A stretch of DNA of 42,405 nt from Gammaproteobacteria bacterium. GTDB taxonomy: Bacteria; Pseudomonadota; Gammaproteobacteria; Steroidobacterales; XN24. Of the stretch, positions 5,572-28,007 are shown one piece after another (position 1 is the stretch's first letter; each line of letters starts with the position of its first letter). The stretch is from contig JBATKC010000097.1 in NCBI GenBank assembly GCA_049669065.1, positions 1 to 42,405 on the forward strand, written 5' to 3'. A program made the position numbers and the translations under genes. The notes under the pieces are model-generated. The model worked only from the letters and a program-made list of their open reading frames with translations, did no database searches and had not been told where the DNA came from.

Positions 5572-7437
5572 TCAGCGCCGCATGGCCGGATAGTCGATGA
5601 TTGTTGCCGGCGGCCACACAACATCGGCTTCCTCGAGCCGCTGTTTGAATACCGGCGTCGCCTCCAGATCAAACGGTGCGCCGCACAGACACTCACTGAT
5701 GGCACCGATCAGCATCATCGGGCCCATGGGTAATCTGTCGAACCAGGCCGCCGCCTCGTTCGCCGCTTCCCGCTGCCCGGTGACCGCGTTGAGTTGCAGC
5801 GTGTGGTACATCTTCAGCCAGGGTCCGGACCCGGCTATGACCTCAGCAGCCCTCGCCCGGGCGGACTCCATATCGCCGCTTGCGGCGTCCACCAGCGCCA
5901 GCTTCAGCTCCCGGTTCCAGAGATCGCGGCTGGCCGCGCGTTCCCGCGCCTCTTCATATCGTTGTTGGGCGAGCAGCGCCATCACCAGCCCCGCTTCAAG
6001 GAACGGATCATCCGGCTTGATGTCCAGGCCGCGGAGCGTCAGCTCGATGGCCTCGTCCTTTCGTCCGATCCAGAGCGCGGACAGGCCAGCCGAATAATAA
6101 TAATAGAAATTCAGCGGGTCGCATTCGATCATCGCCTTTGTGTAGGCAAGATATTCTTCGGCCTTCCCGAACGGCGGCGCCAGCTCGATCCACACCCCCT
6201 CGGCGCAGCTCCTCGAGGCCAGCGCGGCATCAAATCGCTCAGGCAGCGCACGCCAGTTATCCGATGCCATGGTCCGGTCGACTTCTATCAGCGCGCGCTC
6301 GTCTGCCGAGGACACATTGGCGATAGCAGCGTCCAGGTCATTCATGTAAGCGGCATAGGCCAGCTGTCGCTCTGCGTCCTCTACCCCGTATAGCGTCGTC
6401 CGGTGGGCATGGTAATCACTGCGCATGAAGTAGGCGCTGGCGAAACGCGGCTCCAGGCGCAGGGCTTCGGTAAACCATTCTGCCGCCTCGGCCATGGTCG
6501 GCATGTCGATCTCGTGGCTGTGTGCCTGCCAGAACCTGGCCTGGCCTTTCTGGAAGGCGATAAACGCCTCGACGTCGCGCACCCCGGCGGTCTGCATGCG
6601 CCGTCGTTGCTGGTCGTCCAGCACCACTCCGAGCGCACGGGATACGCTCTCGGCGATATCGGTCTGGACCTCGAACGTATCCTCCATGGTCCGGTCATAG
6701 GTCTCGGACCAGAGATGATAGCCGTCAGCGGCCCGGATCAGCTGGGCGGTAATGCGCGCCTGGTCTCCGGAGCGCCGCACGCTGCCTTCGAGCACATGGG
6801 CGGCATTCAGCGTTTCGCCGACCTCGCGCACATCCGCATTCTTGCCCTTGAACTGGAACGAGGAGGTCCGCGCCGTGACCTGCAGACCGGGGACGCCGGC
6901 GAGGAAGTTCAGGATTTCCTCGGACAGGCCATCAGCGAAATACTCGTTCTCCGGATCGGCACTCATATTGACGAATGGCAGCACGGCGATCGAACGAACT
7001 GGCGGCGGTGCAAACTTCGCTGCCGCCAATGCGGCCGGATCCGCGACGGGAATCGGTTGCGTGGTTTCGGCAGCGACGTCTGCCACCTCCGGCTGCTCCG
7101 GCAACATACGGTCGACCGCCACCGTTGCGATGGCGAGCACGAGCAGCACGGCAATCAGGATATTGATCCGCGTGGTCTTGGCGGAGACACCCGTCGTGCG
7201 GTCCATATCCCGTTCGCGCTTTAGCCCCTCGGGCGTCATCTCGAACACCCAGGAAAAAATAACTGCGAGCGGGAAACCGAGCACCAGCAGCGCCAGCACC
7301 AGACGGAGCCAGGAGGCGGGCAGTTCGAGCGCATCGAACAGCACGTCGGCGACCTGCAGGATCAGCCACGCAGCGACGAGATAGAGCAGGGCGACCTTAA
7401 AGACGTTACGTCGCTTGAGTTCTTCGAACAGAGACAT
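5572..7437 (-). CDS. Membrane-anchored TolB_N-like (COG5616-type) domain plus TPR-repeat protein, paralog 1
   Basis: N-terminal FEELKRRNVFKVALLYLVAAWLILQVADV helix pair. This is followed by IAVLPFVNMSADPENEYFADGLSEEI...TARTSSFQFKGK...LEGSVRRSGDQARITAQLIRAADGYHLWSETYDR, and then TPR-like helical repeats. The region is clearly paralogous to 12217..14358. Confidence 0.8.
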   Translation of the reverse strand: MSLFEELKRRNVFKVALLYLVAAWLILQVADVLFDALELPASWLRLVLALLVLGFPLAVIFSWVFEMTPEGLKRERDMDRTTGVSAKTTRINILIAVLLVLAIATVAVDRMLPEQPEVADVAAETTQPIPVADPAALAAAKFAPPPVRSIAVLPFVNMSADPENEYFADGLSEEILNFLAGVPGLQVTARTSSFQFKGKNADVREVGETLNAAHVLEGSVRRSGDQARITAQLIRAADGYHLWSETYDRTMEDTFEVQTDIAESVSRALGVVLDDQQRRRMQTAGVRDVEAFIAFQKGQARFWQAHSHEIDMPTMAEAAEWFTEALRLEPRFASAYFMRSDYHAHRTTLYGVEDAERQLAYAAYMNDLDAAIANVSSADERALIEVDRTMASDNWRALPERFDAALASRSCAEGVWIELAPPFGKAEEYLAYTKAMIECDPLNFYYYYSAGLSALWIGRKDEAIELTLRGLDIKPDDPFLEAGLVMALLAQQRYEEARERAASRDLWNRELKLALVDAASGDMESARARAAEVIAGSGPWLKMYHTLQLNAVTGQREAANEAAAWFDRLPMGPMMLIGAISECLCGAPFDLEATPVFKQRLEEADVVWPPATIIDYPAMRR

Positions 7438-9025: not shown

Positions 9026-11266
9026 TTGCCAACGCCAACAGACGGACTACTCATGACGCGTGCACGGACACAGATCGCTAACAGCATCCGCCCGGCGGCG
9101 GGCGGGTTCCGCGGTCGCCAGCGTGATCTACCTACTTTTTACTACCGGCGGCACTTTCTGGAGCTGCTGGATTTCGTCTCAGCCCATTACGGGCACGTCC
9201 TCTCGACAGAGGAGCACGGGCTGATCGACGCGTTCGGACAGCTGGATCACAATGCCCAGTGCCTCTATGTACGGCTGGTCAATCGCAAGGGTCGGATCTT
9301 CGCCACCAACAAACTCAGATATCCGGAGATCGGAGACCTCGAGCGGCCGCTGGTGGAGCTAAGGTCCGCAGCCTGGGTCGGGTCGCCGGGACCCGGGCTT
9401 TTCGAGGACCTGCTCGCATCATTGACCAAATCCGAGATCTACACCGCTGTCGCACCATCTTTCCCGGGACTCAGCCGATCGCTCAAGAAAGCGGAATTGA
9501 TCAACTTCGTGCATCAGCACTGCGACCCGTCGGCGTTCATGTCCAGCGTCGACCGCAGCCGGCTGCTGGTCCAGCGGCGGGTGGATTGGGTGCGTTTTCT
9601 TCTGTTTCTGTATTTTGGGGAGTGCCGCGACGGGCTGTCTCGTTTCACCATGCGTGATATGGGTCTGGTCCGCACCCATGCATTTACGGACGCCTATGAG
9701 GCACGCTTCTCGGACCGTGAAGAAGCACTGCAGACCTACTATTTCGCCAGCCGCATCAGGATCTTCGACCACGGCACAGAGCGCGAGCGTGAAAGGCTGA
9801 CTGACGAAGTGCCGACGTGGCCGGAGCCCGTTTTCGAGGCCGCCGCGCGGCTGCGCGATCGGCTCGCCTACACCGTGGGACGCGAGCAGGAAAAAGCCGG
9901 CGCGGCCGATGCGGCCATGCGCTTCTACGCACGCGGCGACTCGGCCGAATGCAGCGAGCGGATCGCGCGTCTGCTATTGGCGAAGGGACAGCGAGAACAA
10001 GCGCGGCGGCATCTGGAGGCCTGTCTGGACAATCCGCGTAGCGATGAGGAGTGGTTCTTCGCCAACGACCTTTATCAACAGAAGTTCGGTCGCAAGCGCA
10101 CCTCGTCGCTGACCGACGCGCTGCGCGCCGCGGATACAATCGAACTGGACGAGGCCCATAGCGGCAACCCCGAACAGGCGGCGATCTCGCACTTTGAGAG
10201 CTGCGGCCAACGCGCGTTCCGCGCGGAAAATACCTTGTGGCGGTCGCTGTTCGGGTTGTTGTTCTGGGATGAGTTATTCGCCGCGGATTCGACAGTACTG
10301 CATTCGCCATTCGAGGGCTTGCCGTCATCGCTCCGGGACGGTTCGTTTTACGCACTGCATGCATCGATCATCGAAGATAAACTGGCCGATCTGTCGAATG
10401 TCGAAGACACAAAACGGCGCTTGCTCAAAACCAGCACCCGTTACTTCGGCACCGCGAACGGTGTATTCCGCTGGCGCCGATCGATGGCGGAAAAGGTGTT
10501 CGCGTTGCTCGATCATGCCGAAGCGGTCGCAGTCGCCGGCATCCTCAGACGGATGTGTCGTGGGTATCCCGATACCCGCTACGGTTTCCCCGATCTGCTG
10601 GTGATCGACGAAGACGGCGCACGCTTTGTCGAGATCAAGGCGCCGGGCGATCAGCTCCGACGCAATCAGCTGGTGCGCCTGGAGCAGCTGCAGGAGGCGG
10701 GTCTGCGTGCCGGCGTTTTGCGGATCCGCTGGGTATTGGATCCGGAGCAGACCTACGTGGTGGTGGACGTGGAGACCACCGGCGGCAGCGGCGAACAACA
10801 TCGGATTACCGAACTGGCCGCGGTCAAGATGCGCAACGGCAAAGTCGTCGATCGCTTTCAGAGCCTGGTCAATCCGCAACGGCTGATCCCGCCGAAGATC
10901 ACCCGTCTGACCGGCATCACCGACGAAATGGTGGCCGGCGCGCCACAGTTTGCCGATATTGCCGATGAGTTCGCCGCATTCATCGGCGACGCGATCTTCG
11001 TCGCGCACAACGTCAATTTCGACTTCGGTTTCGTGAGCCGGGAGTACGCGCGTCTTGGGCACCGCTTTCGCCACGCAAAGCTCTGCACCTGCTCCTCGAT
11101 GCGCCGGCTCTATCCGGGCCTGCCGTCGTACAGCCTCGGCGCCCTGTGTGCCGAGTTCGATGTGCCGCTCAAGCAGCACCATCGAGCCCTGTGCGATGCG
11201 GAGGCGGCGGCCGATCTGCTGCTGCTGGTCAATGAGAAACGTGCGGAGGCGTTGGCGCGGAGTTGA
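9026..11266 (+). CDS. FAN1-like VRR-NUC (PD-D/ExK) nuclease fused to a C-terminal DnaQ/epsilon-type DEDDh 3'-5' exonuclease domain
   Basis: The N-terminal region (YYRRHFLELLDFV...CLYVRLVNRKGRIFATNKLRYPEI) resembles the FAN1 SAP/TPR region. The VRR-NUC core is GFPDLLVIDEDGARFVEIKAPGDQLRRNQ (about nt 10580-10670). From about nt 10750 the sequence reads YVVVDVETTG...FVAHNVNFDFGF...HRALCDAEA, i.e. ExoI/II/III motifs of the DEDDh type. The start could be TTG 9026 or ATG 9053. Confidence 0.8.
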   Translation: MPTPTDGLLMTRARTQIANSIRPAAGGFRGRQRDLPTFYYRRHFLELLDFVSAHYGHVLSTEEHGLIDAFGQLDHNAQCLYVRLVNRKGRIFATNKLRYPEIGDLERPLVELRSAAWVGSPGPGLFEDLLASLTKSEIYTAVAPSFPGLSRSLKKAELINFVHQHCDPSAFMSSVDRSRLLVQRRVDWVRFLLFLYFGECRDGLSRFTMRDMGLVRTHAFTDAYEARFSDREEALQTYYFASRIRIFDHGTERERERLTDEVPTWPEPVFEAAARLRDRLAYTVGREQEKAGAADAAMRFYARGDSAECSERIARLLLAKGQREQARRHLEACLDNPRSDEEWFFANDLYQQKFGRKRTSSLTDALRAADTIELDEAHSGNPEQAAISHFESCGQRAFRAENTLWRSLFGLLFWDELFAADSTVLHSPFEGLPSSLRDGSFYALHASIIEDKLADLSNVEDTKRRLLKTSTRYFGTANGVFRWRRSMAEKVFALLDHAEAVAVAGILRRMCRGYPDTRYGFPDLLVIDEDGARFVEIKAPGDQLRRNQLVRLEQLQEAGLRAGVLRIRWVLDPEQTYVVVDVETTGGSGEQHRITELAAVKMRNGKVVDRFQSLVNPQRLIPPKITRLTGITDEMVAGAPQFADIADEFAAFIGDAIFVAHNVNFDFGFVSREYARLGHRFRHAKLCTCSSMRRLYPGLPSYSLGALCAEFDVPLKQHHRALCDAEAAADLLLLVNEKRAEALARS

Positions 11267-12216: not shown

Positions 12217-14358
12217 CTATGGCGCCAATTCCTCGCCCCGGAGAGCATTGACCCGATTCAGCTGGGCTTCCATATCGGCCTCGATCTCCGTGAGGACGGC
12301 CTGGTAACGCGGATCACCGTGCAAACTGGCCAGGTTGTTATTGCGCTCTGTGCCGATGCGCCAACCCGATCGCCATCCCTCCCCGACTGCCCTTGCCAGC
12401 AGATCCAGCGCAAATTCCCGGTCTCCCATCAGCGCGTGGATTTCCACGTCGCTGATACCGTAGCCGCTGAATCCGAGACGCGGCCGCGTCTGGATTGCGG
12501 AGAGAGCTCCCTGCAACAGGATCTCGGCATGGTCACGCTGGCCAGCCCTGATCAGGACGTTGGCGATTTCGATCGCCCAGCCGAAGTTGGTCGCATCGAT
12601 GACCGGCGCCTCGTTTTCAAAAAGATCAGGCTTCGCCTCACGATATCGCTCCAGGGCTACGGAGATATTTCCGTCCCGGTAGTCCGCATCGCGCAGGATC
12701 AACAGCGATAACCAGTTGTCCGGCGCCATCTCGAGCATGGCATTGGCCGCGTTGACGGCGTCCTCCTGTTCGCCGGTATGTCGGGCCAGATAGATCGCCG
12801 CCCACAAGGATGAATACTGGTTCGGGGCCATATCCATCGCGTGTCGCATCCAGCGCTCGCCGGCCTCGAAGTCACCCAGGTCCAGATAGACCATGCCCAG
12901 CCAGCGGGCGTGGTCAGGATTCCCCGGATCGATGTCGATCGCCTTGTAAAGCCAGTCGACGGCTTCGTCCAGCTGTCCAAAAACTTCCCAGTACAGATCC
13001 GCCATGATGGTGTAGGCGCGTGGATAATCCGGATCGATGTCGATCACGCGCTGGCAACGCTCGCGCACTTCCTCGAATCGCCCGAGCTCATGCAGGTCTT
13101 CCACCACGGCCATGTTGATCGGGGTCGACAGCGGATCCAGCCCCAGCGCGGTCTGGTGTAATTCCAGCGCGGCCTCGACCCGCCCAAAACCCCGCTTCAT
13201 CAACATGCCGTATCCAAGATACGCCGGGGCATAGTTCGGGCTGAGTTGTATGGCGCGCTGGTAGGCGGTTTCGGAGCCGGTAAAGTTGCCCTGCAGCAGG
13301 CGCAGCCCACCCATGCTCGAATACGCTTCCCCGAGTTGACGATCCAGCTCCAGAGCCCGCTCCAGTGCCGGTTCGGCCTGTTTTTGAACCGCCTGTGTGT
13401 CCAGTCCGCCGTAAGAACCCAACAACGCATAGGTATCGGCCAGCCCGACGTAAGCCAGGGCGAAATCCGGATCGAGCTGAATGGCCTCGGCAAAGTGTCC
13501 GGCCGCCTCCTGCAGCGAGCCGCTGGTGCGGCGGGCCATCATCTGGCGGCCAAGCAGATAGGCATCGTAGGCGGCGATATTGTCGGTGGGTCGGCGGCTC
13601 AGCCGGCTTTGCTCTGCGCCCAGCAGTGACACCTTCAGCGATTCGACCACTTTGGTGGCGATCTCGTCCTGGATCGAAAAGACATCATCGATCTGGCGGT
13701 CAAACGTCTGCGACCAGATATGGTATCCATCGCTGGCGTTGATCAGCTGCACGGTGATCCGGATCGTGTCACCTGCTTTCCTGATGCTACCTTCCAGCAC
13801 CGATTTGACCCCGAGCTCGCTCGCGATCTGCCCGATCGCCACATCCTTGCCCTTGAAATAGAACGATGATGTGCGCGCGGCCACGTGGAGATCGGAGATC
13901 TGTGCAAGCCGATGCAACAATTCCTCAGATATGCCGTCGCTGAAGTGTTCCTGAGCGGGATCGCCGCTCATATTGACGAACGGCAACACCGCGATAGAAG
14001 CTTCGGTATCGCGACCCAGCCACCATTTATCGAAAGCGAAAAACCCTACGGCGGCAGTGAGCAACGCGATAACGATAAAGTCCATCCGCCGTCCCGTGAC
14101 ATGGCTTATGGACTCGGACCGATCGACGTCTTTTTCCCGCTTCACACCCCCCGGCGTGATTTCGTAGAACCAGGCCAGCATCAGAGCCAGCGGAAATCCG
14201 CCCGCCAGCACGCCCAACACGACCCGTCCCAGCGACGGATCCAGCCCGGCCAGACCGATCATCACCTCGGCCACCTGCATGATCAGCCAGGCGGTCACCG
14301 CATACAGCGCCGCCATCCGCGGGACATTGCGGCGCCTGAGTTCAAAAAATAGTCGCAT
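12217..14358 (-). CDS. Membrane-anchored TolB_N-like (COG5616-type) domain plus TPR-repeat protein, paralog 2
   Basis: FFELRRRNVPRMAALYAVTAWLIMQVAEV...IAVLPFVNMSGDPAQEHFSDGISEEL...AARTSSFYFKGK...LEGSIRKAGDTIRITVQLINASDGYHIWSQTFDR, followed by many TPR-like repeats. I take the start at ATG 14358 (MRLFFEL), by analogy with paralog 1. The ORF track extends to 14394. Confidence 0.8.
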   Translation of the reverse strand: MRLFFELRRRNVPRMAALYAVTAWLIMQVAEVMIGLAGLDPSLGRVVLGVLAGGFPLALMLAWFYEITPGGVKREKDVDRSESISHVTGRRMDFIVIALLTAAVGFFAFDKWWLGRDTEASIAVLPFVNMSGDPAQEHFSDGISEELLHRLAQISDLHVAARTSSFYFKGKDVAIGQIASELGVKSVLEGSIRKAGDTIRITVQLINASDGYHIWSQTFDRQIDDVFSIQDEIATKVVESLKVSLLGAEQSRLSRRPTDNIAAYDAYLLGRQMMARRTSGSLQEAAGHFAEAIQLDPDFALAYVGLADTYALLGSYGGLDTQAVQKQAEPALERALELDRQLGEAYSSMGGLRLLQGNFTGSETAYQRAIQLSPNYAPAYLGYGMLMKRGFGRVEAALELHQTALGLDPLSTPINMAVVEDLHELGRFEEVRERCQRVIDIDPDYPRAYTIMADLYWEVFGQLDEAVDWLYKAIDIDPGNPDHARWLGMVYLDLGDFEAGERWMRHAMDMAPNQYSSLWAAIYLARHTGEQEDAVNAANAMLEMAPDNWLSLLILRDADYRDGNISVALERYREAKPDLFENEAPVIDATNFGWAIEIANVLIRAGQRDHAEILLQGALSAIQTRPRLGFSGYGISDVEIHALMGDREFALDLLARAVGEGWRSGWRIGTERNNNLASLHGDPRYQAVLTEIEADMEAQLNRVNALRGEELAP

Positions 14359-14467
14359 TGTTAAAGAGTTAGTTGACCACCAACACCAGCGCAAGCCGGC
14401 AGAAGGCCTCAGCCAAGCCTGCCATCCGGGCTAGTATGGCCTTGCACTGTGAAAGAGGGGGAAATCC

Positions 14468-14984: not shown

Positions 14985-17138
14985 CTAGAGGAACGGCTCG
15001 GCCCGTTTGATCAGATCGTCAAGCCCGGGTTCATCCGGATCGATCGGCTTGCCCGGGTGGATGATCGAGACCTGACAGCTCTCTGCCGCCTCCACCAGCT
15101 GGGCATAGGTCCCCGCGCCGCGGTCGGCGATGTAGGCCTGACGGTTCTCGTCATAGGCAAACATCTTGTCGTTGATCTGGGTGCATTCGTTGCAGGTCGT
15201 GCAGCGGGGCGTCTCGATATACGCCTCGTCCGGTGACGGTTCTGCGGTGTCCTCGATCGGCGCTGCTTCCGGAGACGCCTCAGGCTGTGCGGATATAGCG
15301 GGCGGTTCTGGCGCCGCGTCGGTCGCCAGTTCCGCTTCCTGTTCACGCTCCCTGCGCGCCGCCTCCAGCAGTCGCTGCGCGTGAGAATTATGGATGCCAC
15401 CGAACTCTTGCAGGCTATGCCAGGCTTCGCGGCACCGGCGCGCCTCGCGGAGCAGTCTTTCATCGACCAGCACATGCTGCAGATTATTTTGCCCGTCGAC
15501 CATCAGAATACAGGGAATCTTCTCGGTCTCGCTGTCATTTTCGGCGGCAAGTGCCTCGCCGACAGAGATCATCTGCTCATCGCGTGCATTCGCCGGCACG
15601 CGGGCGAGGTGCCGGGCGAAACGCTCGTCCAGCGCTGCGAAATCGACAAAGGTAAACGCGATCGCTTCCGTGACGCCGCGCCGTTCCCGATCCTCGTAAG
15701 AAAACAAATGCAGCGGCCAGTCCAGATCCGTCTGTGGATTACCGCTCAGGAAGAAACGCGAAGCGAGATCGGCACCGGCTACAGGGCTAAATGAAAATAT
15801 CGGGAACGCCCGGGATTCGACAGCGGCCGCCGCCAGCAGGTAAGGCGGCAGATTCCCGGCGAAGCCCGATGCCCCGCTGAATACGCTGAAAATGGTGGTC
15901 CCCTGAAATGCGAGCCCTTCGGCAATCCAGTCCCTGCATCGAAGCAGGTGGGAGGCGGGCGCCTGCAACACATAGACCTCATTCAGACCCATCGCCATAT
16001 TGGCGAAGTGCAGCGCGCTACGGCCAAATCCGTGGGGCTCAAGGCCGGGCAGAGCCGCCTGCAGGATATCGTCCGTCTGCACCAGGATCTTCATCGGCAG
16101 ACCCGATGACAGCAGCTCCATCAGCGCGGCCTGCTCATTCGCATCCATGGTCGCCGCGTTGACGCAGACCAGATAATCAGCGAACGGCGCGAGGTCCTCC
16201 GGCGCCAGCCCGTCCGCGCCATACTCCTCGAAGTAGGGGTCATGCCTATCCTCGCGGTAATCGCCGGCAATCTCGAGGTCCGCTATCGCGATGGCTCGCG
16301 CCACATCAACCAGGATGGGGTAGCGCTCGCGCCAGGCGTCGAGCGCGGCCACGCAGCTATCGAAGCGAAATGCCTGCGGCTCGAAATCATAGGTCCCGAG
16401 CGCGCTGAGCAGCCGCTCCAGCCGGCGGCGACGCGTTTCGGTAATCGTCGTCTGGTTTGCGGTGCGGACCAGCAGTGCGGACATGGCCTGGAAGTCGAAA
16501 CTCATCGCATCCGAACCGCCGATAGCGGCCTCCAGCGATTCAGCACTGCGGCCGCGTTCCGAGCGGGCGACATCCGCTTTCAGGATGTCGCTCAGGCGCT
16601 GCACCAGCCTGGCGATCTGATCGCGGAGCCGGGCTGCCTTGTGTTCCTGAGCCACTTGCCAGGCGTGACCCAACAGCCGTGACGGCAGCCGGGTATCACA
16701 GCCAGCGATCACCCCGTCTACATTCAGAGCAGCGCGCGCCCGCTCGAGACTGCCACGCAAATCCGCGTCTTCGTCTGCGCCGATCCGTGCTGCGGCCAGG
16801 TCCCACTGCTTCGACAACACCTCGCCGCCACCACCTGCGGCAGCTCGACGCAGGGCGGTCTCGAGACGCAGTAAATGACGACTCAGACGCTCACCGTCCT
16901 CTCCGTGTGTAATCTGCCGAAGTAGCGTATCGAAAAGCCCGGACAGCGACTGCACGCACTCTGCAGGGCTCGCATGCTCGAGCAATACCAGCGGATAATC
17001 GTGCCGCAGCGAGTCCAGATCGCAGTACCGGCTCAGCAGGGCCGGTATCAGATCCATCCCCTCGACGGGCTCGAGTTCAGCCCCGGGCCGCTTGCCGGTC
17101 AGATAAAAAGCCACCCGGGCCTGGCGCACGGTGTCCAT
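14985..17138 (-). CDS. Uncharacterised 717-aa protein: degenerate PFOR-like central region, Pro/Ala/Glu-rich linker, C-terminal single-cluster ferredoxin domain
   Basis: It starts 22 nt after korB on the same strand. C-terminal module (nt 14988-15215): IETPRCTTCNECTQINDKMFAYDENRQAYI...AESCQVSIIHPG, i.e. CxxCxxC...C of mono-cluster ferredoxins. It is preceded by EQEAELATDAAPEPPAISAQPEASPEAAPIEDTAEPSPDE. I recognised no other cofactor motif. Confidence 0.75.
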   Translation of the reverse strand: MDTVRQARVAFYLTGKRPGAELEPVEGMDLIPALLSRYCDLDSLRHDYPLVLLEHASPAECVQSLSGLFDTLLRQITHGEDGERLSRHLLRLETALRRAAAGGGGEVLSKQWDLAAARIGADEDADLRGSLERARAALNVDGVIAGCDTRLPSRLLGHAWQVAQEHKAARLRDQIARLVQRLSDILKADVARSERGRSAESLEAAIGGSDAMSFDFQAMSALLVRTANQTTITETRRRRLERLLSALGTYDFEPQAFRFDSCVAALDAWRERYPILVDVARAIAIADLEIAGDYREDRHDPYFEEYGADGLAPEDLAPFADYLVCVNAATMDANEQAALMELLSSGLPMKILVQTDDILQAALPGLEPHGFGRSALHFANMAMGLNEVYVLQAPASHLLRCRDWIAEGLAFQGTTIFSVFSGASGFAGNLPPYLLAAAAVESRAFPIFSFSPVAGADLASRFFLSGNPQTDLDWPLHLFSYEDRERRGVTEAIAFTFVDFAALDERFARHLARVPANARDEQMISVGEALAAENDSETEKIPCILMVDGQNNLQHVLVDERLLREARRCREAWHSLQEFGGIHNSHAQRLLEAARREREQEAELATDAAPEPPAISAQPEASPEAAPIEDTAEPSPDEAYIETPRCTTCNECTQINDKMFAYDENRQAYIADRGAGTYAQLVEAAESCQVSIIHPGKPIDPDEPGLDDLIKRAEPFL

Positions 17139-17160
17139 GTTCTATCGCTCCGTTAACCAC

Positions 17161-18126
17161 CTACGCGGTCGGCCACACCGTGAACTTGTCGAGCTCGGCG
17201 TCCAGCCCCGCCTTGACGAATTCCGTGGTGCGCAGGTAGTCGGTCTCTCGCAAGTCCTCGTAACAGGGTACCTGGGGATTGCGATACAGGATGCCGACCG
17301 GTATCGCGTCGGTGATCGATGCGATCTCACGCGCCCGGTCCAGGTCGGACGGATCGTGGCGCTCCTGATTCCGATAGACGCGCGCCAGGGCTGGACTGAC
17401 CCGGATGCCGTCCTCATGATGCACCAGGTGGATTCGGTCCGGATCGTGGAGCCAGGGCTCGAATAGGCTGGGCAACCACTCGGGACAGCGCTGGACGATG
17501 CGGATAAACGAAAAACCGCGGTGCCTGAACGCCGCCGTGACGATGTCGTAGAGGACCTCCGGGATCCAGTCCACGGCCTGAGCGACGAAAGATGCGTTTT
17601 GCACCCCCAGGGTCACGGTCAGAGGTTGCATCGCCTCGAGGAACGCGCCGTGGGGTGTGGTGTTGCTCTTCAGCCCCTTAGGCGACGTCGGCGACGCCTG
17701 CATCTTGGTCAGGCCATAGATCTGATTGTCGTGCAGGAACACCGTCATGTTCATGTTGTAGCGGATGGCGTGGATCCAGTGAGCTGCGCCGATGCTGCAG
17801 CAATCGCCGTCGCCAGTATTGACGAACACGTGCAGGTCCTTGCGCGCCATCCGTACGCCCTCGGCCAGCGGTAAGGCGCGCCCGTGGATGCCGTGGAATC
17901 CATAAGTCTTCATGTAGTGGGGGAACCGGCTGGAGCAACCGATACCGGATACGAAAACCGTCTTCTCCGGTCTGAGTTGCTCGTCACGACACAGGCGCTG
18001 GACAGCCGCCAGGATGGCGTTGTCGCCGCATCCGGTGCACCAGCGCGGCACGCCACTCTGGTAGTCCTCGAGTTCGTGACGCTGTTCGTATAGCTTCAGC
18101 AGACAGTGGCTTGCGGCAGTGGCCAT
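17161..18126 (-). CDS. korB: 2-oxoglutarate/2-oxoacid:ferredoxin oxidoreductase, beta (TPP-binding) subunit
   Basis: Cys ligands are present at CTGCGD and GIGCSSRF. The TPP motif is TGDGDCCSIG...HDNQIYGLT. 321 aa, matching two-subunit KorAB enzymes. Confidence 0.9.
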   Translation of the reverse strand: MATAASHCLLKLYEQRHELEDYQSGVPRWCTGCGDNAILAAVQRLCRDEQLRPEKTVFVSGIGCSSRFPHYMKTYGFHGIHGRALPLAEGVRMARKDLHVFVNTGDGDCCSIGAAHWIHAIRYNMNMTVFLHDNQIYGLTKMQASPTSPKGLKSNTTPHGAFLEAMQPLTVTLGVQNASFVAQAVDWIPEVLYDIVTAAFRHRGFSFIRIVQRCPEWLPSLFEPWLHDPDRIHLVHHEDGIRVSPALARVYRNQERHDPSDLDRAREIASITDAIPVGILYRNPQVPCYEDLRETDYLRTTEFVKAGLDAELDKFTVWPTA

Positions 18127-18130
18127 AGAC

Positions 18131-20077
18131 TTATCCTCGGTGCGGCGCGTTGCCGCCAGTCTGATCGTGTGGATCGAGTCGTTTCCGTATTACCTGACAG
18201 ATCGCGCCCGGTTTGATCGGCGCGCCCCGCACCTGCGTCCAGCAGTCCACATCCGCCAGATAGCGGGATCTCAACAACATCGCCAGCGCCGAATAGCGCC
18301 GGTTGTGCTCATCGATAAACCGGTCCTGAGTGCTGTCACTCCAGTTCGTTTCGATGGTCATGACCTGGTCAAAACGCCGCATGATCTCATCGATCCCGGG
18401 CGCCATCGGTTGCAGGAATTTGAGATGCAACGAGGCTACCCGGTAGCCCTCGCTGCGCATGCGCTCCACCGCCTCTTCGACCGCCCCGCGGGTGCTGCCC
18501 CAACCGATGAGCAGCAGCTCACCGCTGTCGTCACCGAACACCGCCGGCGGCTTGAGTGTCTTCTGCAGCGCTGCCAGTTTGAGGCTGCGGGCACGCAGAC
18601 CTTCCTCGTTGATGTCCGGATCGTAGGCGACATGGCTGTCGCGATCGTGCGCCAGCCCGGTCACCGTATGCATGCCGCCTGGCTGGCCGGGCACGATACG
18701 GCGGGCCAGCCCGGTGTCCGGGTCCCAGTCATAGGGCCGCGTGCCGGCCGCGACCGGGCTCTGATCCACCGGCGGGGCCATCCACGCCTCGTTGAATTCG
18801 GGCCGCCGGAAGGGCGTCTGACCGGTCGCCAGGCTGGCGTCGGATAATACGACGACCACCATGTTGAAGGTCTCCGCGATCTTGCGCGCAGTAATCACCG
18901 AGTAGAAACAGTCCTCGACCGTGCTCGCCGCCATCACGACTTTTGGCGCATCACCATGGCTGCCGAACATCGTCGTCAGAAGGTCCCCTTGCTCGACCTT
19001 GGTCGGCTGGCCGGTGCTCGGCCCGCCGCGCTGCACATTCACCACGACCAGCGGAATCTCGGCCATCACTGCGAGACCGATAGCTTCCTGCTTGAGCGAA
19101 TACCCGGGACCCGAGGTGATGGTGACGGTGCATTTGCCGGCGTACGAGGCGCCGATAGCGAATGCGCAGGCGGCGATCTCGTCCTCCGCCTGATGAACCA
19201 CGCCGCCGACCTTCTCGAACACTTCGGCCAGATAATGCGACGCCGAGGTAGCCGGCGTGATCGGGTACATGGCGCAGATCTCCATGCCCGAAGCCAGAAC
19301 ACCGAGCGCGAGCGCCGTATTGCCATTGACGACGACCTGTGCCTCGGTAGCCGGCGTGGCCGGGATACGGTATTTGAATGGCAGATTGCGTTCTGCCCAG
19401 TCGCAGCCGGCCTGAAGCAACACGATGTTGCTATCGATCACCTCGCGCGACTTCTTGCGGAAAGTCAGCGCGATCTGCTCACGCGCCAGGTCCATATCGA
19501 GGCTATAGATATTGCACAGCATCCCGAGAGCGAACATGTTTTTGCCACGAGCCGCGTCCGGCGCGGCGCGTTTGCATTCCCGCTCCATCGGGATCTCGAT
19601 CAGCAGGTACCCGGCCGAGACCAGTTGCTCACAGGTATCTGCATAGGCAGAAGCGATGCGTGGATCGGTCTCGTCACGCCACTTGTCCTCGAGCAGGATC
19701 GTGCACCCGGGCTTTAGTTCCCCGGCGCGGACCCGGCCGAGCAGCACCTGCTCGTTGAACGCCACCACGAGATCGGTCTCATCACCGCCATTTGTCACCC
19801 GCTTCGAGCCCAGGCGGATGCGGTTGCCGCTGGCGCCGGCCACGCTCCTCGCTGGCGGCCGGATCTCAGCCGGGATGATCTCGACGGTCCAGACGCCATT
19901 GCCCATGCGCGCTGCGATGGCGCCCAGCGATTGTCCGCAGCGTTGAGCGCCTTCGCCGGAATCGCTGATGATCTCGATCACGTGTTGCTCGATATCGCTG
20001 ACTGACTTGACCAGCCGCGGTGTCCGCGAGCTGATCGGCTGCGGGCTAGCGGCCGGGGATATGTTGGTCTGGTTCAT
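18131..20077 (-). CDS. korA: 2-oxoglutarate/2-oxoacid:ferredoxin oxidoreductase, alpha subunit (fused gamma+alpha domains)
   Basis: 648 aa. The N-terminal gamma-like domain contains GEGAQRCGQ. The alpha domain contains MYPITPATSASHYL. There is a 4-nt gap to korB. Confidence 0.9.
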   Translation of the reverse strand: MNQTNISPAASPQPISSRTPRLVKSVSDIEQHVIEIISDSGEGAQRCGQSLGAIAARMGNGVWTVEIIPAEIRPPARSVAGASGNRIRLGSKRVTNGGDETDLVVAFNEQVLLGRVRAGELKPGCTILLEDKWRDETDPRIASAYADTCEQLVSAGYLLIEIPMERECKRAAPDAARGKNMFALGMLCNIYSLDMDLAREQIALTFRKKSREVIDSNIVLLQAGCDWAERNLPFKYRIPATPATEAQVVVNGNTALALGVLASGMEICAMYPITPATSASHYLAEVFEKVGGVVHQAEDEIAACAFAIGASYAGKCTVTITSGPGYSLKQEAIGLAVMAEIPLVVVNVQRGGPSTGQPTKVEQGDLLTTMFGSHGDAPKVVMAASTVEDCFYSVITARKIAETFNMVVVVLSDASLATGQTPFRRPEFNEAWMAPPVDQSPVAAGTRPYDWDPDTGLARRIVPGQPGGMHTVTGLAHDRDSHVAYDPDINEEGLRARSLKLAALQKTLKPPAVFGDDSGELLLIGWGSTRGAVEEAVERMRSEGYRVASLHLKFLQPMAPGIDEIMRRFDQVMTIETNWSDSTQDRFIDEHNRRYSALAMLLRSRYLADVDCWTQVRGAPIKPGAICQVIRKRLDPHDQTGGNAPHRG

Positions 20078-20082: not shown

Positions 20083-21582
20083 TCAGGCAGATGTCCGTAT
20101 GCGGACGAAGTTGCGCTCCCTCAGATCGATGCCGAACAGGGTGTCGGCGCCCGGTGCCAGATACGGCGCGTCCGCATCGCGGATGCCGAGATAGCGCCGC
20201 ATTTTTCGCGCCGCCTTGCGACCGGCGCCCATGGCCTCGATCACCGTCGCCGCCCCGGTGACGATGTCACCACCGGCGAATACACCCGGCATCGACGTGG
20301 CCAGGTCTTCGTCGGTCTCGATGTAGCCCCATTTGTTTAGCGAGAGCTTCGACGTTTGTCCGATGATCGGATTGGCGTTGGTGCCGATGGCGACGACGAC
20401 CAGGTCGACGTCGATATCGTGCTCGCTTTCACCGACCGGCACCGGTCGGCGCCGACAGGAGTCATCCGGCTCGCCGAGTTCCATGCGCACGCAGCGGAGG
20501 CCACGCACGCCCCCCTCGCCGTCGTCCAGGACGGCGACCGGATTGGTGAGCCACTTGAACTGGATGCCTTCCTGCTCTGCGTGATGGACTTCCTCGGCCC
20601 GCGCCGGCGCTTCCGCGCGGCTGCGTCGGTAGATACAGAAGACCTCTTCGGCGCCTAGTCGCAGACACACGCGCATCGCATCCATCGCGGTATTGCCGGC
20701 ACCGACGACCGCGACACGCCTGGCCGGAGGCATCGGCGTGTCGTAGGCAGGGAATTCTCTGGCGCGCATCAGGTTGCAGCGGGTCAGCAGTTCGTTAGCC
20801 GACAACACGCCATTGAGGGAATCGCCGGGCACACCGAGCATGTTGGGGTAGCCGGCACCGGTGCCGATAAAGACCGCATGGAAACCGAGCTCGTCGATCA
20901 TCTGCTCGATGGTGAACAGCCGCCCGACCAGCGTGTTGCACTCGAAGTGGACGCCGAGCTTCTCGAGGTTGCCCATCTCCGCATCGATCACCTCATTGGG
21001 TAAGCGGAAATCCGGGATGCCATAACGCAACACACCACCGGATTGATGGAAGGCCTCGTAGACGGTGACTTCGCAACCCGCTTTGGCCATGTCGGCGGCG
21101 CAGGCCATGCCGGCCGGACCGGCGCCGACGATGCCGATGCGAAAACCCGCGGATTCGATATAAGGGACGTTGGCCCAGCCGGCGGTAATGGCCATGTCAC
21201 CGACAAAGCGCTCGAGCCTGCCGATCGCCACGGGCTCCAGGGTATCGCCGACCGTGCACACGCCCTCGCATTGGGTCTCCTGGGGACACACGCGTCCGCA
21301 CACGGCCGGTAGCAGGTTGGTGGTGGTGATGACGTCGTAGGCGCCGCGGAAGTCCTTTTCGGTGAGCCTTTGGATAAACGCGGGGATATTGACACCCACC
21401 GGACAACCCGCGACACAGGGCTGTTCGGGACACATCAGGCAGCGATCCGCCTCGACCAGGGCCTCCTCTTTGCTATAGCCGTGGGAGACCTCATCGAAGT
21501 TCGTGATCCGCTGACCGGGTTCCTGCTCGGCGACCGGTGTGCGTGCCTGCGGGATCGTGCGGATGGTCCGTTTCTTTGCCAC
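20083..21582 (-). CDS. GltD/NfnB/SudA-like NAD(P)H-dependent iron-sulfur flavoprotein (glutamate synthase small-subunit homologue)
   Basis: Two 4Fe-4S-type Cys clusters (CLMCPEQPCVAGCP and CGRVCPQETQCEGVC). Dinucleotide folds are IGIVGAGPAGMACA and VAVVGAGNTAMD, with GGDIVTGAATV near the C-terminus. GTG start 6 nt after the upstream stop. Confidence 0.85.
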   Translation of the reverse strand: MAKKRTIRTIPQARTPVAEQEPGQRITNFDEVSHGYSKEEALVEADRCLMCPEQPCVAGCPVGVNIPAFIQRLTEKDFRGAYDVITTTNLLPAVCGRVCPQETQCEGVCTVGDTLEPVAIGRLERFVGDMAITAGWANVPYIESAGFRIGIVGAGPAGMACAADMAKAGCEVTVYEAFHQSGGVLRYGIPDFRLPNEVIDAEMGNLEKLGVHFECNTLVGRLFTIEQMIDELGFHAVFIGTGAGYPNMLGVPGDSLNGVLSANELLTRCNLMRAREFPAYDTPMPPARRVAVVGAGNTAMDAMRVCLRLGAEEVFCIYRRSRAEAPARAEEVHHAEQEGIQFKWLTNPVAVLDDGEGGVRGLRCVRMELGEPDDSCRRRPVPVGESEHDIDVDLVVVAIGTNANPIIGQTSKLSLNKWGYIETDEDLATSMPGVFAGGDIVTGAATVIEAMGAGRKAARKMRRYLGIRDADAPYLAPGADTLFGIDLRERNFVRIRTSA

Positions 21583-21588: not shown

Positions 21589-22494
21589 TTACTTTCCGCT
21601 CTCGGGCGACGGCGCCCGTGCGCCCTCGGGCTGCTGTGCCATGCGGCAGTGCTCCGACCAGCGCTCCATGGCGGCTTTTTCCTCGTCCGAGAAACGACGC
21701 AGCCGGGCCATCAGGTCAGCGAAATCCACCTGATGGCCGTCGAAGTCCGGTCCATCGACACAGGCGAATTTGACCTGGTCGCCGACCTTGACCCGACAGC
21801 CCCCGCACATGCCGGTACCGTCTATCATCACCGGGTTCAGCGATACCATGGTCTTGATCCCGTAGGGGCGGGTCATCTCCGCGGCACCCTGCATCATCAC
21901 CGGCGGCCCGATCGCCACACATTCATCGATATCCGGATGCGTCTCCAGCGCCAGCCGGATGCCTTCGGTGACGCGGCCCTCGACGCCAGCCGATCCATCG
22001 TCGGTACAGACGATGACTTCATCGCAACAGGCCTCGAATTTTTCTTTCCAGAAGATCAGGCTGCTGGTGCGGAAACCCAGCACCGCGATCACGCTGGCGC
22101 CATTCTCCTTGAAAGACCGGGCCTGAGGATAGATCGGCGCGACGCCGAGACCGCCACCGACACAGAGCACCTTGTGTCCCTGGCCGAGCTCGCTGGGCAT
22201 ACCCATGGGTCCGACCATGCCGTGCAGACAACGGCCCACGGTGCAGATCTGCTGCATCTCGCGAGTCGATTTGCCCACCGCCTGGATGACCAGGGTGATG
22301 GTGCCCTGGTCGCGGTCATAGTCTGCGATAGTCAGCGGGATCCGCTCGCTGTGCTCGTGGGCCATCACTATCACGAACTGGCCCGGCCGGGCCGCCTTCG
22401 CCATCATCGGATGATAAATCTCGAGCAGATACGTGGCGTCCGAGAAGTCTTCCCGCGCCACGATCTCGAATCTCGATCGCTGGTCGCTATCCAT
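21589..22494 (-). CDS. NfnA/SudB-like FAD/NAD-binding 2Fe-2S subunit (dihydroorotate dehydrogenase electron-transfer-subunit family)
   Basis: FNR-like fold (RIPLTIADY, VLCVGGGLGVAPI) and a C-terminal cluster motif MCGGCRVKVGDQVKFACVDGPDF. It is the first gene of the operon. Confidence 0.8.
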   Translation of the reverse strand: MDSDQRSRFEIVAREDFSDATYLLEIYHPMMAKAARPGQFVIVMAHEHSERIPLTIADYDRDQGTITLVIQAVGKSTREMQQICTVGRCLHGMVGPMGMPSELGQGHKVLCVGGGLGVAPIYPQARSFKENGASVIAVLGFRTSSLIFWKEKFEACCDEVIVCTDDGSAGVEGRVTEGIRLALETHPDIDECVAIGPPVMMQGAAEMTRPYGIKTMVSLNPVMIDGTGMCGGCRVKVGDQVKFACVDGPDFDGHQVDFADLMARLRRFSDEEKAAMERWSEHCRMAQQPEGARAPSPESGK

Positions 22495-24669: not shown

Positions 24670-26445
24670 TCAGGAAGGATAGTCGGAAATGCCGGGATTG
24701 TTCTCCACGTTCTTCAGCACCGGCGTGTTGAGCCGATCCACGCGGATGGTTTTCTCGGACCGCAGGTATTCTGCGACCACCTCCCAGACCGGGCGCCCTG
24801 GAGACTCGGATCCGACCGTGGCCCAGCCGGTCACCTTGTATTGTTTACCGGCCTCGATGAGTTCGCCGGAATCCAGCGTCATATTGCTGATCCGGCTGCC
24901 AATGTCTGCGAGCGGATCGCAGACATAGTTCATGCCGCCGAGCCGGACCATGTCACCGCCCTGCTGATAGTAGGGATCGGGGTTGAACAGGTTATCGCAC
25001 ACGTCCTCGAGGATCAGCTTGAGCTCCTCGCCGGTCATGTCCCGGACATAGGTTTCCGGATAGGTGATACAGGTCTGGTCCAGCAACCGTTCCATGGTGA
25101 TCGGATCACCGGGCAGGATGCTGGTGCCCCAGCGGAAACCCGGCGACAGGGCAATCTGGGCGTCTTCCACCGCCATCAATCCGTCACAGATCACCTGGTC
25201 GAAGGTGCCGCTGAAATTGCCGCGCCGGTACAGGACCGTCTCGGCGATCGCCAGCTGTTCATCCAGTCGCTCCCGGTACGGTGCCCGCATGTCTTCGATG
25301 TAGGCCGCCATCTCCGCATCGGCAGGCAGAAGATCGGAGAAGATCGGCAGCAGCCGATAGCGGAAGTCCCGCACCCGGCCCGGTCCCAGGTCCAGATCCA
25401 GCACCGCGAGGAACTTGCCGTTGGAGCCGGCGTTGGTGACCACGGTCGTGCCGCCGGCCGCATTCTTGACGAGGCTGGGGACCGGCATGCCGTCGTGGGT
25501 GTGGCCACCGAGAATGAAATCGATACCGGAAGTGGCCGAGGCCAATTTCAGGTCCACGTCCATGCCGTTATGCGACAGCAGGACCACCGCCGCGGGATCG
25601 AGTCCTTGACGGATCTGGTCGACCAGAGCCTGGAGCTCATCGGCACGGATGCCGAAGGTCCAGTTCGGGATAAAGCGAGACGGGTTGGCGATCGGCGTGT
25701 ATGGGAATGCCTGACCGATCACGGCGACCCTGTTGCCGCCGATCTGTCTCATCGTGTACGGGGGAAACGCGTGACCCTCCTCGTCAAAGGCCGGCACATC
25801 GAAAAACGCCGCGTCGTCGGTGAGCTTGACATTTTGTGCCACGAACTCACCGTTGAAACTCTCGACATTGGCGCGAATCTCGTCCTCCAGATAGGTGAAC
25901 TCCCAATGGCCGGTCATGATGTCGACGCCGAGCAGGTTGCAGGCATCCACCATGTCGCGGCCCCGGGTCCACAGCGCGGTCCCGGAGCCCTGCCAGGTAT
26001 CGCCGCTATCAAGCAGCAGCGCCTCTCCACCAGGCGCCTCGGCACGGAGTTTCTTCACCAGCGTAGCCAGATGAGAGAAACCGCCCACCTTGCCGAGGCG
26101 ACGTGCCTCGGACTCGAAATCGAGGTAGGTGAATGCATGGCCATCCGGGGTGCCCGAAGGGATGTCCGCATACCGGAGCAGAGCCTCCCCAACCAGGTGC
26201 GGCAGCTTGCCCTCGCGGTCCCCTACGCCGATGTTGACGTTGGGTTCGCGAAAATAGACCGGCATCAACTGCGCATGGCAGTCGGCAAAATGCAGGATCC
26301 GGCCGTTGCCGAACGACGTCATGTCATACATGCCGCCCAGTCCGGCCGCTGCATTGCTGCGACGTCCACGGCCCGAAGCACAACCAGCCGTACTGCCCGC
26401 GAGCACACCCATGCCCAGCAGGCGCAGGAATTCCCTACGTTCCAT
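24670..26445 (-). CDS. soxB: SoxB thiosulfohydrolase (dimanganese 5'-nucleotidase-family)
   Basis: Tat signal MERREFLRLLGMGVL. Metallophosphoesterase motifs are HFADCH, DSGDTWQGS, GHWEF and GGHTHD. 591 aa. Confidence 0.95.
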   Translation of the reverse strand: MERREFLRLLGMGVLAGSTAGCASGRGRRSNAAAGLGGMYDMTSFGNGRILHFADCHAQLMPVYFREPNVNIGVGDREGKLPHLVGEALLRYADIPSGTPDGHAFTYLDFESEARRLGKVGGFSHLATLVKKLRAEAPGGEALLLDSGDTWQGSGTALWTRGRDMVDACNLLGVDIMTGHWEFTYLEDEIRANVESFNGEFVAQNVKLTDDAAFFDVPAFDEEGHAFPPYTMRQIGGNRVAVIGQAFPYTPIANPSRFIPNWTFGIRADELQALVDQIRQGLDPAAVVLLSHNGMDVDLKLASATSGIDFILGGHTHDGMPVPSLVKNAAGGTTVVTNAGSNGKFLAVLDLDLGPGRVRDFRYRLLPIFSDLLPADAEMAAYIEDMRAPYRERLDEQLAIAETVLYRRGNFSGTFDQVICDGLMAVEDAQIALSPGFRWGTSILPGDPITMERLLDQTCITYPETYVRDMTGEELKLILEDVCDNLFNPDPYYQQGGDMVRLGGMNYVCDPLADIGSRISNMTLDSGELIEAGKQYKVTGWATVGSESPGRPVWEVVAEYLRSEKTIRVDRLNTPVLKNVENNPGISDYPS

Positions 26446-26482
26446 GCGTCTCCCTCGCGACCGCCAGGCGGTCGCCGCTCAG

Positions 26483-26794
26483 CTATTTGACGACGGCCGC
26501 TCTCCAGGCATCCGCCTGCTGTCTCGCCTGGGCTATCGAGGCCTCGCTATGCAACCGGGCCTGGTCGCACAATTTGACGGCCTTGGCGAAATCCCCCGCC
26601 TTGGCCGCGTCACCGGCCTTCGCGATCAGAGGCGCCACCGTGTTCCATTCGTAGTGCAGCTCGGCTGACATCTTGCGGGCCTCTTCGGCGGCCGCACAGG
26701 ACTTGGTATAGCCGTTCTCGTCGGCTGCCTGCGCCGTCGCCGCCGACAGCGCGACCAGGAGTGCGGCCCCAGCGATAAATATCTTCTTCGTCAT
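26483..26794 (-). CDS. Small periplasmic helical protein in the soxA-soxB gap; candidate SoxAX-binding protein (SoxK/SAXB-like)
   Basis: 103 aa. Signal peptide MTKKIFIAGAALLVALSAATAQA. GAGGA RBS. It occupies the same position as soxK (between soxA and soxB) in Chlorobaculum tepidum. Its partner SoxA is the mono-heme type. I cannot verify sequence identity with SoxK. Confidence 0.45.
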   Translation of the reverse strand: MTKKIFIAGAALLVALSAATAQAADENGYTKSCAAAEEARKMSAELHYEWNTVAPLIAKAGDAAKAGDFAKAVKLCDQARLHSEASIAQARQQADAWRAAVVK

Positions 26795-26819
26795 CTTCCG
26801 TTCCTCGCCTGATGAAGGC

Positions 26820-27647: not shown

Positions 27648-27671
27648 CTCTCGCTCCTCCGGTGGGGCCGC

Positions 27672-27986
27672 CTACGAAAGCGTCAGTTCTTCCGACGCCG
27701 TCTCGCCCTTGTTATCCACCCAGTTCATTTTCAGCGTGTCGCCAGCCTTGGCGCCGCTGACATTGAAGGCGAAATAAGGGTTCTTTGATACCGCCGGCCC
27801 AAAATTCGCCGTCATCACCACCTTGCCGTTGAGTTCGGCCTTGACCTCGGTGATGTAATGGGCCGGAACGGTCTCACCTGTCTTGCTGTCCTTGCGGGTG
27901 CCGGTCTCCATTTCATGTTTCATCAAGGTCTTCACCTCGGCCATATCGCCGTTCAGCTTGGCCTTCATTCGGATGCCACTAGCCAT
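27672..27986 (-). CDS. soxZ: SoxZ, sulfur-compound chelating subunit
   Basis: 104 aa. IRMKAKLNGDMAEVKTLMKHEMETG...HYITEVKAELNGKVV is typical SoxZ sequence. It lies directly downstream of soxY. Confidence 0.9.
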   Translation of the reverse strand: MASGIRMKAKLNGDMAEVKTLMKHEMETGTRKDSKTGETVPAHYITEVKAELNGKVVMTANFGPAVSKNPYFAFNVSGAKAGDTLKMNWVDNKGETASEELTLS

Positions 27987-28007
27987 GATTGATTCCTCTT
28001 GTCGTGC

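Follow-up and report, generated by a model that had tools for sequence, protein, structure and literature searches.

Here we describe X, a protein of 717 amino acids encoded on contig JBATKC010000097.1 of a Gammaproteobacteria bacterium (GenBank assembly GCA_049669065.1), a stretch of 42,405 nucleotides (nt) that we refer to as the window. X is the last gene of a five-gene operon, whose other genes encode a two-subunit 2-oxoacid:acceptor oxidoreductase (KorAB) and a flavoprotein related to NfnAB. The core of X is a degenerate relative of pyruvate:ferredoxin oxidoreductase (PFOR) in which the motif for magnesium and thiamine pyrophosphate (TPP) has been lost, a mono-cluster ferredoxin hangs from its C-terminus on a flexible tether, and the gene stands directly behind korB at every locus where this could be tested. 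We think it fairly probable that X is a catalytically dead PFOR paralogue that would serve KorAB as a dedicated carrier subunit, a scaffold associated with the enzyme and holding a [4Fe-4S] carrier on a tether.

The core of X is homologous to the superfamily of PFOR and the other 2-oxoacid:ferredoxin oxidoreductases (OFORs), with the alpha/beta fold of the TPP-binding PP domain that forms domain VI of PFOR and the beta subunit of the multi-subunit enzymes. A profile of 76 diverse X family members (32-50% identity to the protein of the window), run against the sequences of the PDB, aligns with residues 978-1118 of the Moorella PFOR at an E-value of 5.5e-4. In this alignment LssGlpiKvLv of the X family is paired with LASGANVNVLVLDTEVY of the Moorella enzyme, the 'MAMGLNEVYVLQ' stretch with LGLMAMSYGYVYVA, GpALfsvysG with GPSLIIAYAPC, and AaaaAleSRafPafvydP with EAKKAVEAGYWPLYRYNP. 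All of these lie past the TPP motif of PFOR, and they are exactly the four parallels that the initial annotation of the window had picked out by eye. Searches of the PDB sequences with X alone, or with a profile of 25 sequences, returned ferredoxin I only and no PFOR. The fold was assessed on two AlphaFold models, one built from 25 sequences (predicted local distance difference test score, pLDDT, of 79) and one from 76 (pLDDT 92.3, predicted template modelling score 0.83). With the second model all 18 Foldseek matches at E <= 1e-3 were PFOR chains, the best at 4.6e-5 (solved PFOR structures include 1B0P from D. africanus and 6CIN from M. thermoacetica), and the next ranks were taken by beta subunits of oxalate oxidoreductase, archaeal PFOR, the Sulfolobus OFOR, the Magnetococcus 2-oxoglutarate oxidoreductase (OGOR) and H. 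pylori Oor. Both models gave the same outcome, with PFOR and OFOR chains only in the top ranks, so that the PFOR-like fold supposed from the sequence is found in the predicted structure as well.

What this core has lost is the cofactor site. The positions equivalent to GDG, residues 327-329 (nt 16152-16160), are N-A-A in a register that comes from a non-significant hhalign alignment and from the spacing relative to the Moorella PFOR profile alignment, and across the 76 members they are variable, with no conserved Asp. This bears out the claim of the initial annotation that X lacks the GDG...N motif for TPP and magnesium, and the variable positions, the profile match and the Foldseek ranks together support its description of the core as a pseudo-TPP domain. 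Neither short nor long forms of X match TPP_enzyme_C or POR_N in Pfam, and the 717-residue form has no PYR domain (domain I or the alpha subunit) to complete a TPP site. The cluster cysteine in the 'APC' of PFOR is aligned with Ala423 of X, a position occupied by A, S, D or N across the family, and X is thus short of one alignable proximal-cluster cysteine. Each of the features expected of an active OFOR, namely a GDG-X(24-30)-N/T motif, four cysteines for the proximal cluster and a PYR domain, is therefore wanting in X, unlike in the neighbouring korB, whose GDGD...N motif is intact and whose cysteines are kept. Outside the ferredoxin, Cys147, Cys262 and Cys569 are partly conserved. They were considered as ligands of a second Fe-S cluster in the body and rejected, because only 67, 52 and 38 of the 76 members keep them, which makes a second conserved cluster unlikely; Cys147 would appear, from an alignment with the giant proteins described next, to be the relic of a CxxC site.

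Larger relatives show that X is no isolated invention. Some members of the family reach 1,236-1,460 residues, with an extra N-terminal half that contains a PFOR_II domain and in which POR_N, the domain that completes the TPP site, was not detected. These long forms are collinear, in degenerate shape, with PFOR domains I-III: in one of them, P0215, residues 138-350 and 509-566 correspond to residues 137-347 and 499-556 of the D. africanus PFOR (E 3e-5). The gene clusters of distant X members also hold giant PFOR-like proteins of about 1,530 residues, with two Fe-S motifs besides domains I, II and III; Pfam recognises domains I, II, III and V in them. A giant protein is collinear with the D. africanus PFOR up to residue 792, and hhalign finds homology between its last 470 residues and X, aligning giant 988-1455 with X 141-586 (probability 99.8%, E 1e-28). 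The place that domain VI has in PFOR is thus taken by the X module, and the protein of the window corresponds, as judged from these alignments, to the C-terminal half alone of a diverged, full-length PFOR paralogue.

Compared with PFOR, the short form of X lacks domains I-V, and a tethered ferredoxin with one cluster replaces the internal domain V with its two. Where PFOR has the first half of its domain VI, X has a helical region of about 170 residues, with long helices at residues 151-192 and 262-291 in the AlphaFold model, and it is here that Cys147 lies. The N-terminal domain in front of it is present in all family members, long forms included (aligned from about profile position 5). We considered residues 1-140 as a degenerate domain V, and the alignment to the giant protein does not reach there. 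Behind the helical region come the PP core, which holds the stretches parallel to PFOR, and a further subdomain at residues 471-607 that is part of the module common to the giant proteins, where the hhalign alignment extends to residue 586.

A well folded and conserved body invites the notion that X is an enzyme in its own right, with a cofactor other than TPP or with TPP bound in a non-canonical way, in which case the operon would encode two activities. The domains that Pfam still finds in the giants mean that some relatives may be active. X itself, however, does not conserve the Mg/TPP ligands; its short form is without a PYR-domain partner, its long forms have no detectable POR_N, and no enzyme family model is matched. 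We regard this notion as highly improbable.

The C-terminal domain of X is a ferredoxin, and the mono-cluster CxxCxxC...C module proposed at the outset is confirmed by Pfam and by its cysteines. The ligands Cys646, 649, 652 and 688 are present in 76, 75, 76 and 76 of the 76 members, so that orthologues have not lost them, and the residue after the last cysteine is Q or P in about equal numbers. The Fer4_13 model scores the protein of the window at 24.9 bits against a cut-off of 24.5, and its relatives at 30-35 bits. The closest solved relative is ferredoxin I of D. africanus (1FXR/1DAX), which has the same cysteine pattern and matches the X domain at E 5e-6, with a TM-score of 0.85 and a root-mean-square deviation of 1.1 A over 59 residues at 30% identity. 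D. africanus ferredoxin I is a natural acceptor of PFOR. It is a free protein of 64 residues, whereas the X domain is fused to a scaffold of 640 residues and carries an extra conserved tail of 23 residues. This tail (HPGKPxxPxEPGL..L..RAEPF, residues 694-717) is strongly conserved, falls outside the Fer4_13 model, and could be a docking motif. As a separate observation, residues 695-717 (window 14988-15056, reverse strand) are nearly as conserved as the cluster-binding part. Ferredoxin and tail together have an identity of 0.67-0.69, against 0.33-0.39 elsewhere in X, a difference of about twofold and one that would be expected of a module that has to fit several partner surfaces.

Between body and ferredoxin lies a linker whose flexible, Pro/Ala/Glu-rich nature was noticed from the start and holds up in composition and models alike. 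Residues 596-639 are 66% Pro, Ala and Glu, and the pLDDT falls below 50 at residues 608-655 in the first model and at 615-630 in the second, where it is the sole such region. Across the family the spacer from the last conserved body motif to the ferredoxin varies from 35 to 111 residues and is the least conserved segment. The swinging arms of the E2 subunits of 2-oxoacid dehydrogenases likewise use a flexible, Pro/Ala-rich linker, which takes a small carrier domain from one active site to another. The likeness is one of analogy only: there is no homology, no lipoyl (biotinyl-like) domain was found in X by Pfam or NCBIfam scans, and what X carries is an Fe-S cluster rather than a covalently bound substrate.

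The gene context ties X to KorAB. In the window the genes run nfnA-nfnB-korA-korB-X on one strand with gaps of 4-22 nt (4-6 nt among the upstream four genes), and X starts 22 nt past the korB stop, with its GGAG ribosome-binding site inside that spacer. A gap of 230 nt, beyond which lies an unrelated gene for a secreted methyltransferase-like protein, precedes nfnA, and a convergent DUF2165 gene follows X. The operon thus has five genes with X as the last, in agreement with the initial annotation. Scans for terminators and promoters at the operon ends gave nothing useful. KorA has its best PDB match in the alpha subunit of the Magnetococcus OGOR (E 4e-78), a single-cluster (alpha-beta)2 enzyme, and KorB matches the beta subunits of the structures StOFOR and MmOGOR (E 1e-48). 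KorAB of this operon is thus of the two-subunit type, without a delta subunit or domain V module. The NfnB-like protein is closest to the large subunit of T. maritima NfnAB (4ylf_B, E 6e-159), followed by P. furiosus NfnI, and the NfnA-like protein scores 373 bits with NCBIfam NF004862 (cut-off 220).

Across genomes the link to korB is invariant. The sample comprised 81 loci, drawn from genomes that represent their species and from one close relative. Of these, 70 extend more than 1 kb upstream of X, and every one of the 70 has korB as the immediate upstream gene in the same orientation. The full order nfnA-nfnB-korA-korB-X is found in 48 of 48 loci with more than 5.8 kb upstream, all from the sampled clade of Beta- and Gammaproteobacteria, and in five further distant loci X is likewise co-oriented with korA-korB. 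The distant members, which are long or of middle length, follow korAB without nfnAB, so that the invariant partner of X is KorAB; the next gene there encodes an RnfB-like Fe-S protein, with a giant PFOR-like protein nearby. Of the synteny foreseen in the initial annotation, the kor part therefore holds at all 70 testable loci and the distant ones, and the nfn part holds at the 48 loci of Beta- and Gammaproteobacteria and is not seen at the distant ones.

The RnfB-like protein, directly behind X at L082:13845-14711, L084:3868-4764, L085:10855-11721 and L087:7719-8573, has about 285-300 residues, made up of a PF04060 'FeS' domain and a 2x[4Fe-4S] domain, and is a candidate alternative partner for the tethered ferredoxin where nfnAB is missing. 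The giants at L084:4733-9328 (+), L085:11708-16288 and L087:12499-17055 (about 1,520-1,530 residues) lie a few genes past korAB-X and the RnfB-like gene. They read 'GQAG' where GDG would be, and may represent a second type of PFOR paralogue that does without TPP. At two loci, L087:2233-4359 (+) and L088:2256-4382 (+), a 708-residue protein with TPP_enzyme_C, PFO_beta_C and POR_N, by its look a beta-alpha fusion, stands between korA and a second korB, upstream of the X homologue.

Partner genes that vary by lineage, Nfn in one and RnfB-like in another, would also suit a simpler arrangement, in which X is the dedicated soluble ferredoxin of KorAB, passes electrons to any acceptor without forming a stable complex, and keeps its body for stability or for protection from oxygen. 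Strong conservation is confined to ferredoxin and tail, and many carriers are aerobes or microaerobes (Rhodoferax, Ramlibacter, sulfur oxidisers), in which protecting a low-potential cluster would be useful. Yet a body of 640 residues, with a pLDDT above 90 and many invariant residues in thousands of clusters, is a costly appendage for a soluble carrier, and the design of tether plus scaffold, together with the adjacency to korB, favours a bound subunit. We consider this arrangement unlikely, and the KorAB-bound carrier subunit remains the reading that we prefer.

X might instead be regulatory or sensory, its cluster sensing oxygen or redox state, or its core binding a nucleotide or CoA, so as to switch the activity or direction of KorAB. 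Pseudoenzymes often turn into regulators, and a Rossmann-like fold is retained in the core, where R443, Q392 and P446 are invariant. The ferredoxin domain, however, resembles the true carrier that serves PFOR in D. africanus, a flexible tether is typical of domains that shuttle, and Pfam and NCBIfam scans found no ligand-binding motif in X; we find a regulatory role very unlikely. In a transcriptome study of the Riftia symbiont (PMC11636981), the genes beside a 'PFOR-like ferredoxin' gene (WP_006475426.1, RS16070), a putative member of the X family, respond to the supply of sulfide, oxygen and nitrate, which would suit a regulatory subunit. The 'PFOR-like ferredoxin' gene itself lies directly after KorA(3)/KorB(3), and its expression falls together with theirs under sulfide or oxygen limitation (PMC11636981 supplement), a possible lead in favour of the carrier subunit.

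The family to which X belongs is large. The initial annotation called X an orphan, which proved wrong: a word-indexed search found at least 971 homologues, many of them full-length at 53-82% identity; an exhaustive profile search over sequences clustered at 50% identity, one representative each, gave 2,656 clusters with E <= 1e-3, of which 1,173 reach E <= 1e-30; and a scan of one genome per GTDB species found a relative of X in at least 563 genomes. Carriers are mostly Betaproteobacteria (Burkholderiales, Rhodocyclaceae, Rhodoferax, Ramlibacter, Propionivibrio, Sulfuritalea), with some Gammaproteobacteria. The source names of the homologues and cluster members are 'ferredoxin' or 'hypothetical protein' only. 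Pfam recognises nothing of X other than the C-terminal Fer4_13, NCBIfam gives no meaningful match, and the 640-residue body is without a model in either, so that no profile search places the whole protein in a characterised family. Full-text literature searches found no paper that characterises X or a Kor-Nfn complex; neither the paper on AadN of R. palustris nor the Ferrigenium preprint deals with this protein. The initial annotation knew of no characterised protein with this architecture, and profile libraries, solved structures and papers yielded no characterisation of X either. The family is widespread and uncharacterised, and, being built from known modules, it is a variant within the OFOR world rather than something categorically new.

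In OFORs with a delta subunit or a domain V, this module takes electrons from the TPP-proximal cluster and passes them out of the enzyme. The two-subunit type has one cluster and no built-in ferredoxin domain. X likely plays the same part for KorAB as the delta subunit or domain V (PorD, KorD and OorD, with two [4Fe-4S] clusters) does elsewhere, that of an Fe-S relay attached to the enzyme, although it differs in belonging to the one-cluster family Fer4_13, in hanging on a long disordered tether instead of being packed, and in riding on a separate pseudo-beta protein. In the mechanism that we propose, the body of X would descend from the TPP-binding part of PFOR (domain VI and beyond), having lost the GDG motif and at least one proximal-cluster cysteine and gained the helical region. 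The body would dock on KorA2B2, and the ferredoxin, at the C-terminus behind a disordered tether of 30-45 residues, would swing between the cluster of KorB and the ferredoxin site of a partner module. In the window that partner would be the NfnAB-like flavoprotein of the same operon, and in other lineages the RnfB-like protein.

The initial annotation had X docked on KorAB and shuttling electrons to Nfn. The docking part agrees with the korAB linkage, and the Nfn part with the 48 complete operons; nfnAB is unlinked in distant lineages, so that Nfn cannot be the universal partner and is one of several. For the operon of the window itself, X probably links KorB to NfnAB. The homologues of its first two genes, NfnAB of T. 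maritima (4YLF) and P. furiosus (5JCA), are NADH-dependent reduced ferredoxin:NADP+ oxidoreductases with ferredoxin as the third substrate. The Nfn enzymes described so far work with free ferredoxin and are not known to share an operon with an OFOR, whereas here a ferredoxin domain sits on a scaffold in the same operon. With NfnAB as partner, the five proteins would tie 2-oxoglutarate, or succinyl-CoA and CO2, to the pairs NAD(H) and NADP(H) with no part for free ferredoxin, and the reaction may run as oxidation or as reductive carboxylation. A more far-reaching and rather doubtful proposal is that all five proteins form one machine, in which a bifurcating Nfn module is hard-wired to a 2-oxoglutarate:acceptor oxidoreductase through the ferredoxin tethered by X. 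Succinyl-CoA could then be carboxylated reductively to 2-oxoglutarate at the expense of NADPH, NAD+ serving as second acceptor; in the opposite direction two NADPH could be gained from 2-oxoglutarate and NADH. Both directions would dispense with free ferredoxin, and this in aerobic or microaerobic Beta- and Gammaproteobacteria, relatives of sulfur-oxidising symbionts among them. A precedent may exist in the NADP+-dependent 2-oxoglutarate oxidoreductase of Azoarcus evansii, which, according to the work of Ebenau-Jehle and colleagues in 2003, reportedly consists of three subunits, KorAB and a flavoprotein. It would show a KorAB-type enzyme wired directly to a flavoprotein that reduces pyridine nucleotides, though it is not known to have a pseudo-PFOR/ferredoxin subunit.

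Several observations weigh against a KorAB-bound carrier subunit of PFOR descent. At the sequence level the homology of the short form to PFOR has modest support, given the E-value of the profile match and the lack of any PFOR match with 25 sequences. Foldseek gives low TM-scores (0.15-0.36), since the match covers no more than about 180-450 of the 717 residues. An hhalign comparison of the X family with a KorB alignment drawn from the loci is not significant (E 0.38, with a shallow KorB alignment of 1.7 effective sequences), though it shows the expected register at the GDG site (VCVNAATMD against VFVNTGDGD); a broader X profile gave a C-terminal match to KorB that we rejected as spurious. The conserved body residues R443, Q392, P446 and W474, none of them a ligand, could mean a binding or catalytic role. 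To the varying linkage with nfnAB must be added that X evolves faster than the four enzyme subunits, with a median identity of 52% against 72-77%, which fits a scaffold and would fit a looser functional tie as well. Lastly, the functional evidence for X consists of synteny and conservation only.

KorAB enzymes of the two-subunit type occur widely among Proteobacteria with an aerobic or microaerobic life, chemosynthetic symbionts and mycobacteria, and to our knowledge the low-potential electron exchange between these enzymes and the cell is mostly unexplained. A conserved carrier subunit specific to the enzyme would answer the question for a large clade. If X connects KorAB to NfnAB, it would provide a ferredoxin-free link from the 2-oxoglutarate/succinyl-CoA step to the pools of NADH and NADPH, with a bearing on the CO2-fixing direction of this step, on the NADPH balance and on how OFORs function under oxygen. 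X would also stand as a clear example of a PFOR-derived pseudoenzyme that serves as a scaffold, and it leads to a testable prediction of how two-subunit OFORs are wired to pyridine nucleotides.

Table 1. Coordinates in the window of X, its domains and the other genes of the operon (CDS, coding sequence; ORF, open reading frame; AF2, AlphaFold model).
Feature	Position	Strand	Basis
nfnA-like small subunit (PyrK-like, FAD + [2Fe-2S]), first operon gene	21589..22494	-	Pfam DHODB_Fe-S_bind
nfnB-like large subunit (GltD-like, FAD + two [4Fe-4S])	20083..21582	-	Pfam Fer4_20 + Pyr_redox_2
korA, fused gamma-alpha subunit	18131..20077	-	Pfam POR + POR_N; NCBIfam TIGR03710 above cut-off
korB, 2-oxoacid:acceptor oxidoreductase beta subunit	17161..18126	-	Pfam TPP_enzyme_C + PFO_beta_C; NCBIfam PorB_KorB
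X ribosome-binding site GGAG	17148..17151	-	Read directly; 9 nt before ATG (17136-17138)
X, complete CDS, 717 amino acids	14985..17138	-	ORF list + translation; stop codon 14985-14987
X N-terminal domain, residues 1-140, mixed alpha/beta	16719..17138	-	AF2 pLDDT about 90-97
X helical region, residues 141-310	16209..16718	-	Start where PFOR domain VI would begin; hhalign to giant protein
X degenerate TPP-binding (PP) alpha/beta core, residues 311-470	15729..16208	-	Moorella PFOR profile match; Foldseek
X beta-sheet subdomain + two long C-terminal helices, residues 471-607	15318..15728	-	AF2
X Pro/Ala/Glu-rich flexible tether, residues 608-640	15219..15317	-	Low pLDDT, composition
X mono-cluster [4Fe-4S]-type ferredoxin + tail, residues 641-717	14988..15218	-	Pfam Fer4_13 (PF13370)

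The surroundings of the operon tell something of the host. Sulfur-oxidation genes lie at window positions 24670-31321 on the reverse strand, encoding a SoxB-like protein (5_nucleotid_C), SoxA, a dihaem cytochrome c and a molybdopterin SoxC-like oxidoreductase, and in L001, the closest relative, the operon has these sox genes at its side too; the host is therefore a sulfur-oxidising gammaproteobacterium. Downstream of the operon, at 12217-14394 (-), is a gene for a protein of 725 residues with tetratricopeptide (TPR) repeats and a hydrophobic N-terminus, which is kept at this place in the closest relatives, L001 (87%) and L002 (80%), and not in the betaproteobacterial loci. A gene at 9026-11266 (+) encodes a fusion of 746 residues that joins a FAN1-type helix-turn-helix, a VRR-NUC nuclease and an RNase T-type exonuclease, and it keeps the same relative position in L001. 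Two open reading frames, of 621 residues at 5572-7437 (-) and of 565 residues at 32905-34602 (-), have no Pfam match at E <= 1e-5. At the start of the window a full-length Peptidase_M2 of the angiotensin-converting-enzyme family (66-1826, +, E 5e-214) is followed by an OPT oligopeptide transporter (1883-3823, +), a pairing that is uncommon for a sulfur-oxidising bacterium.

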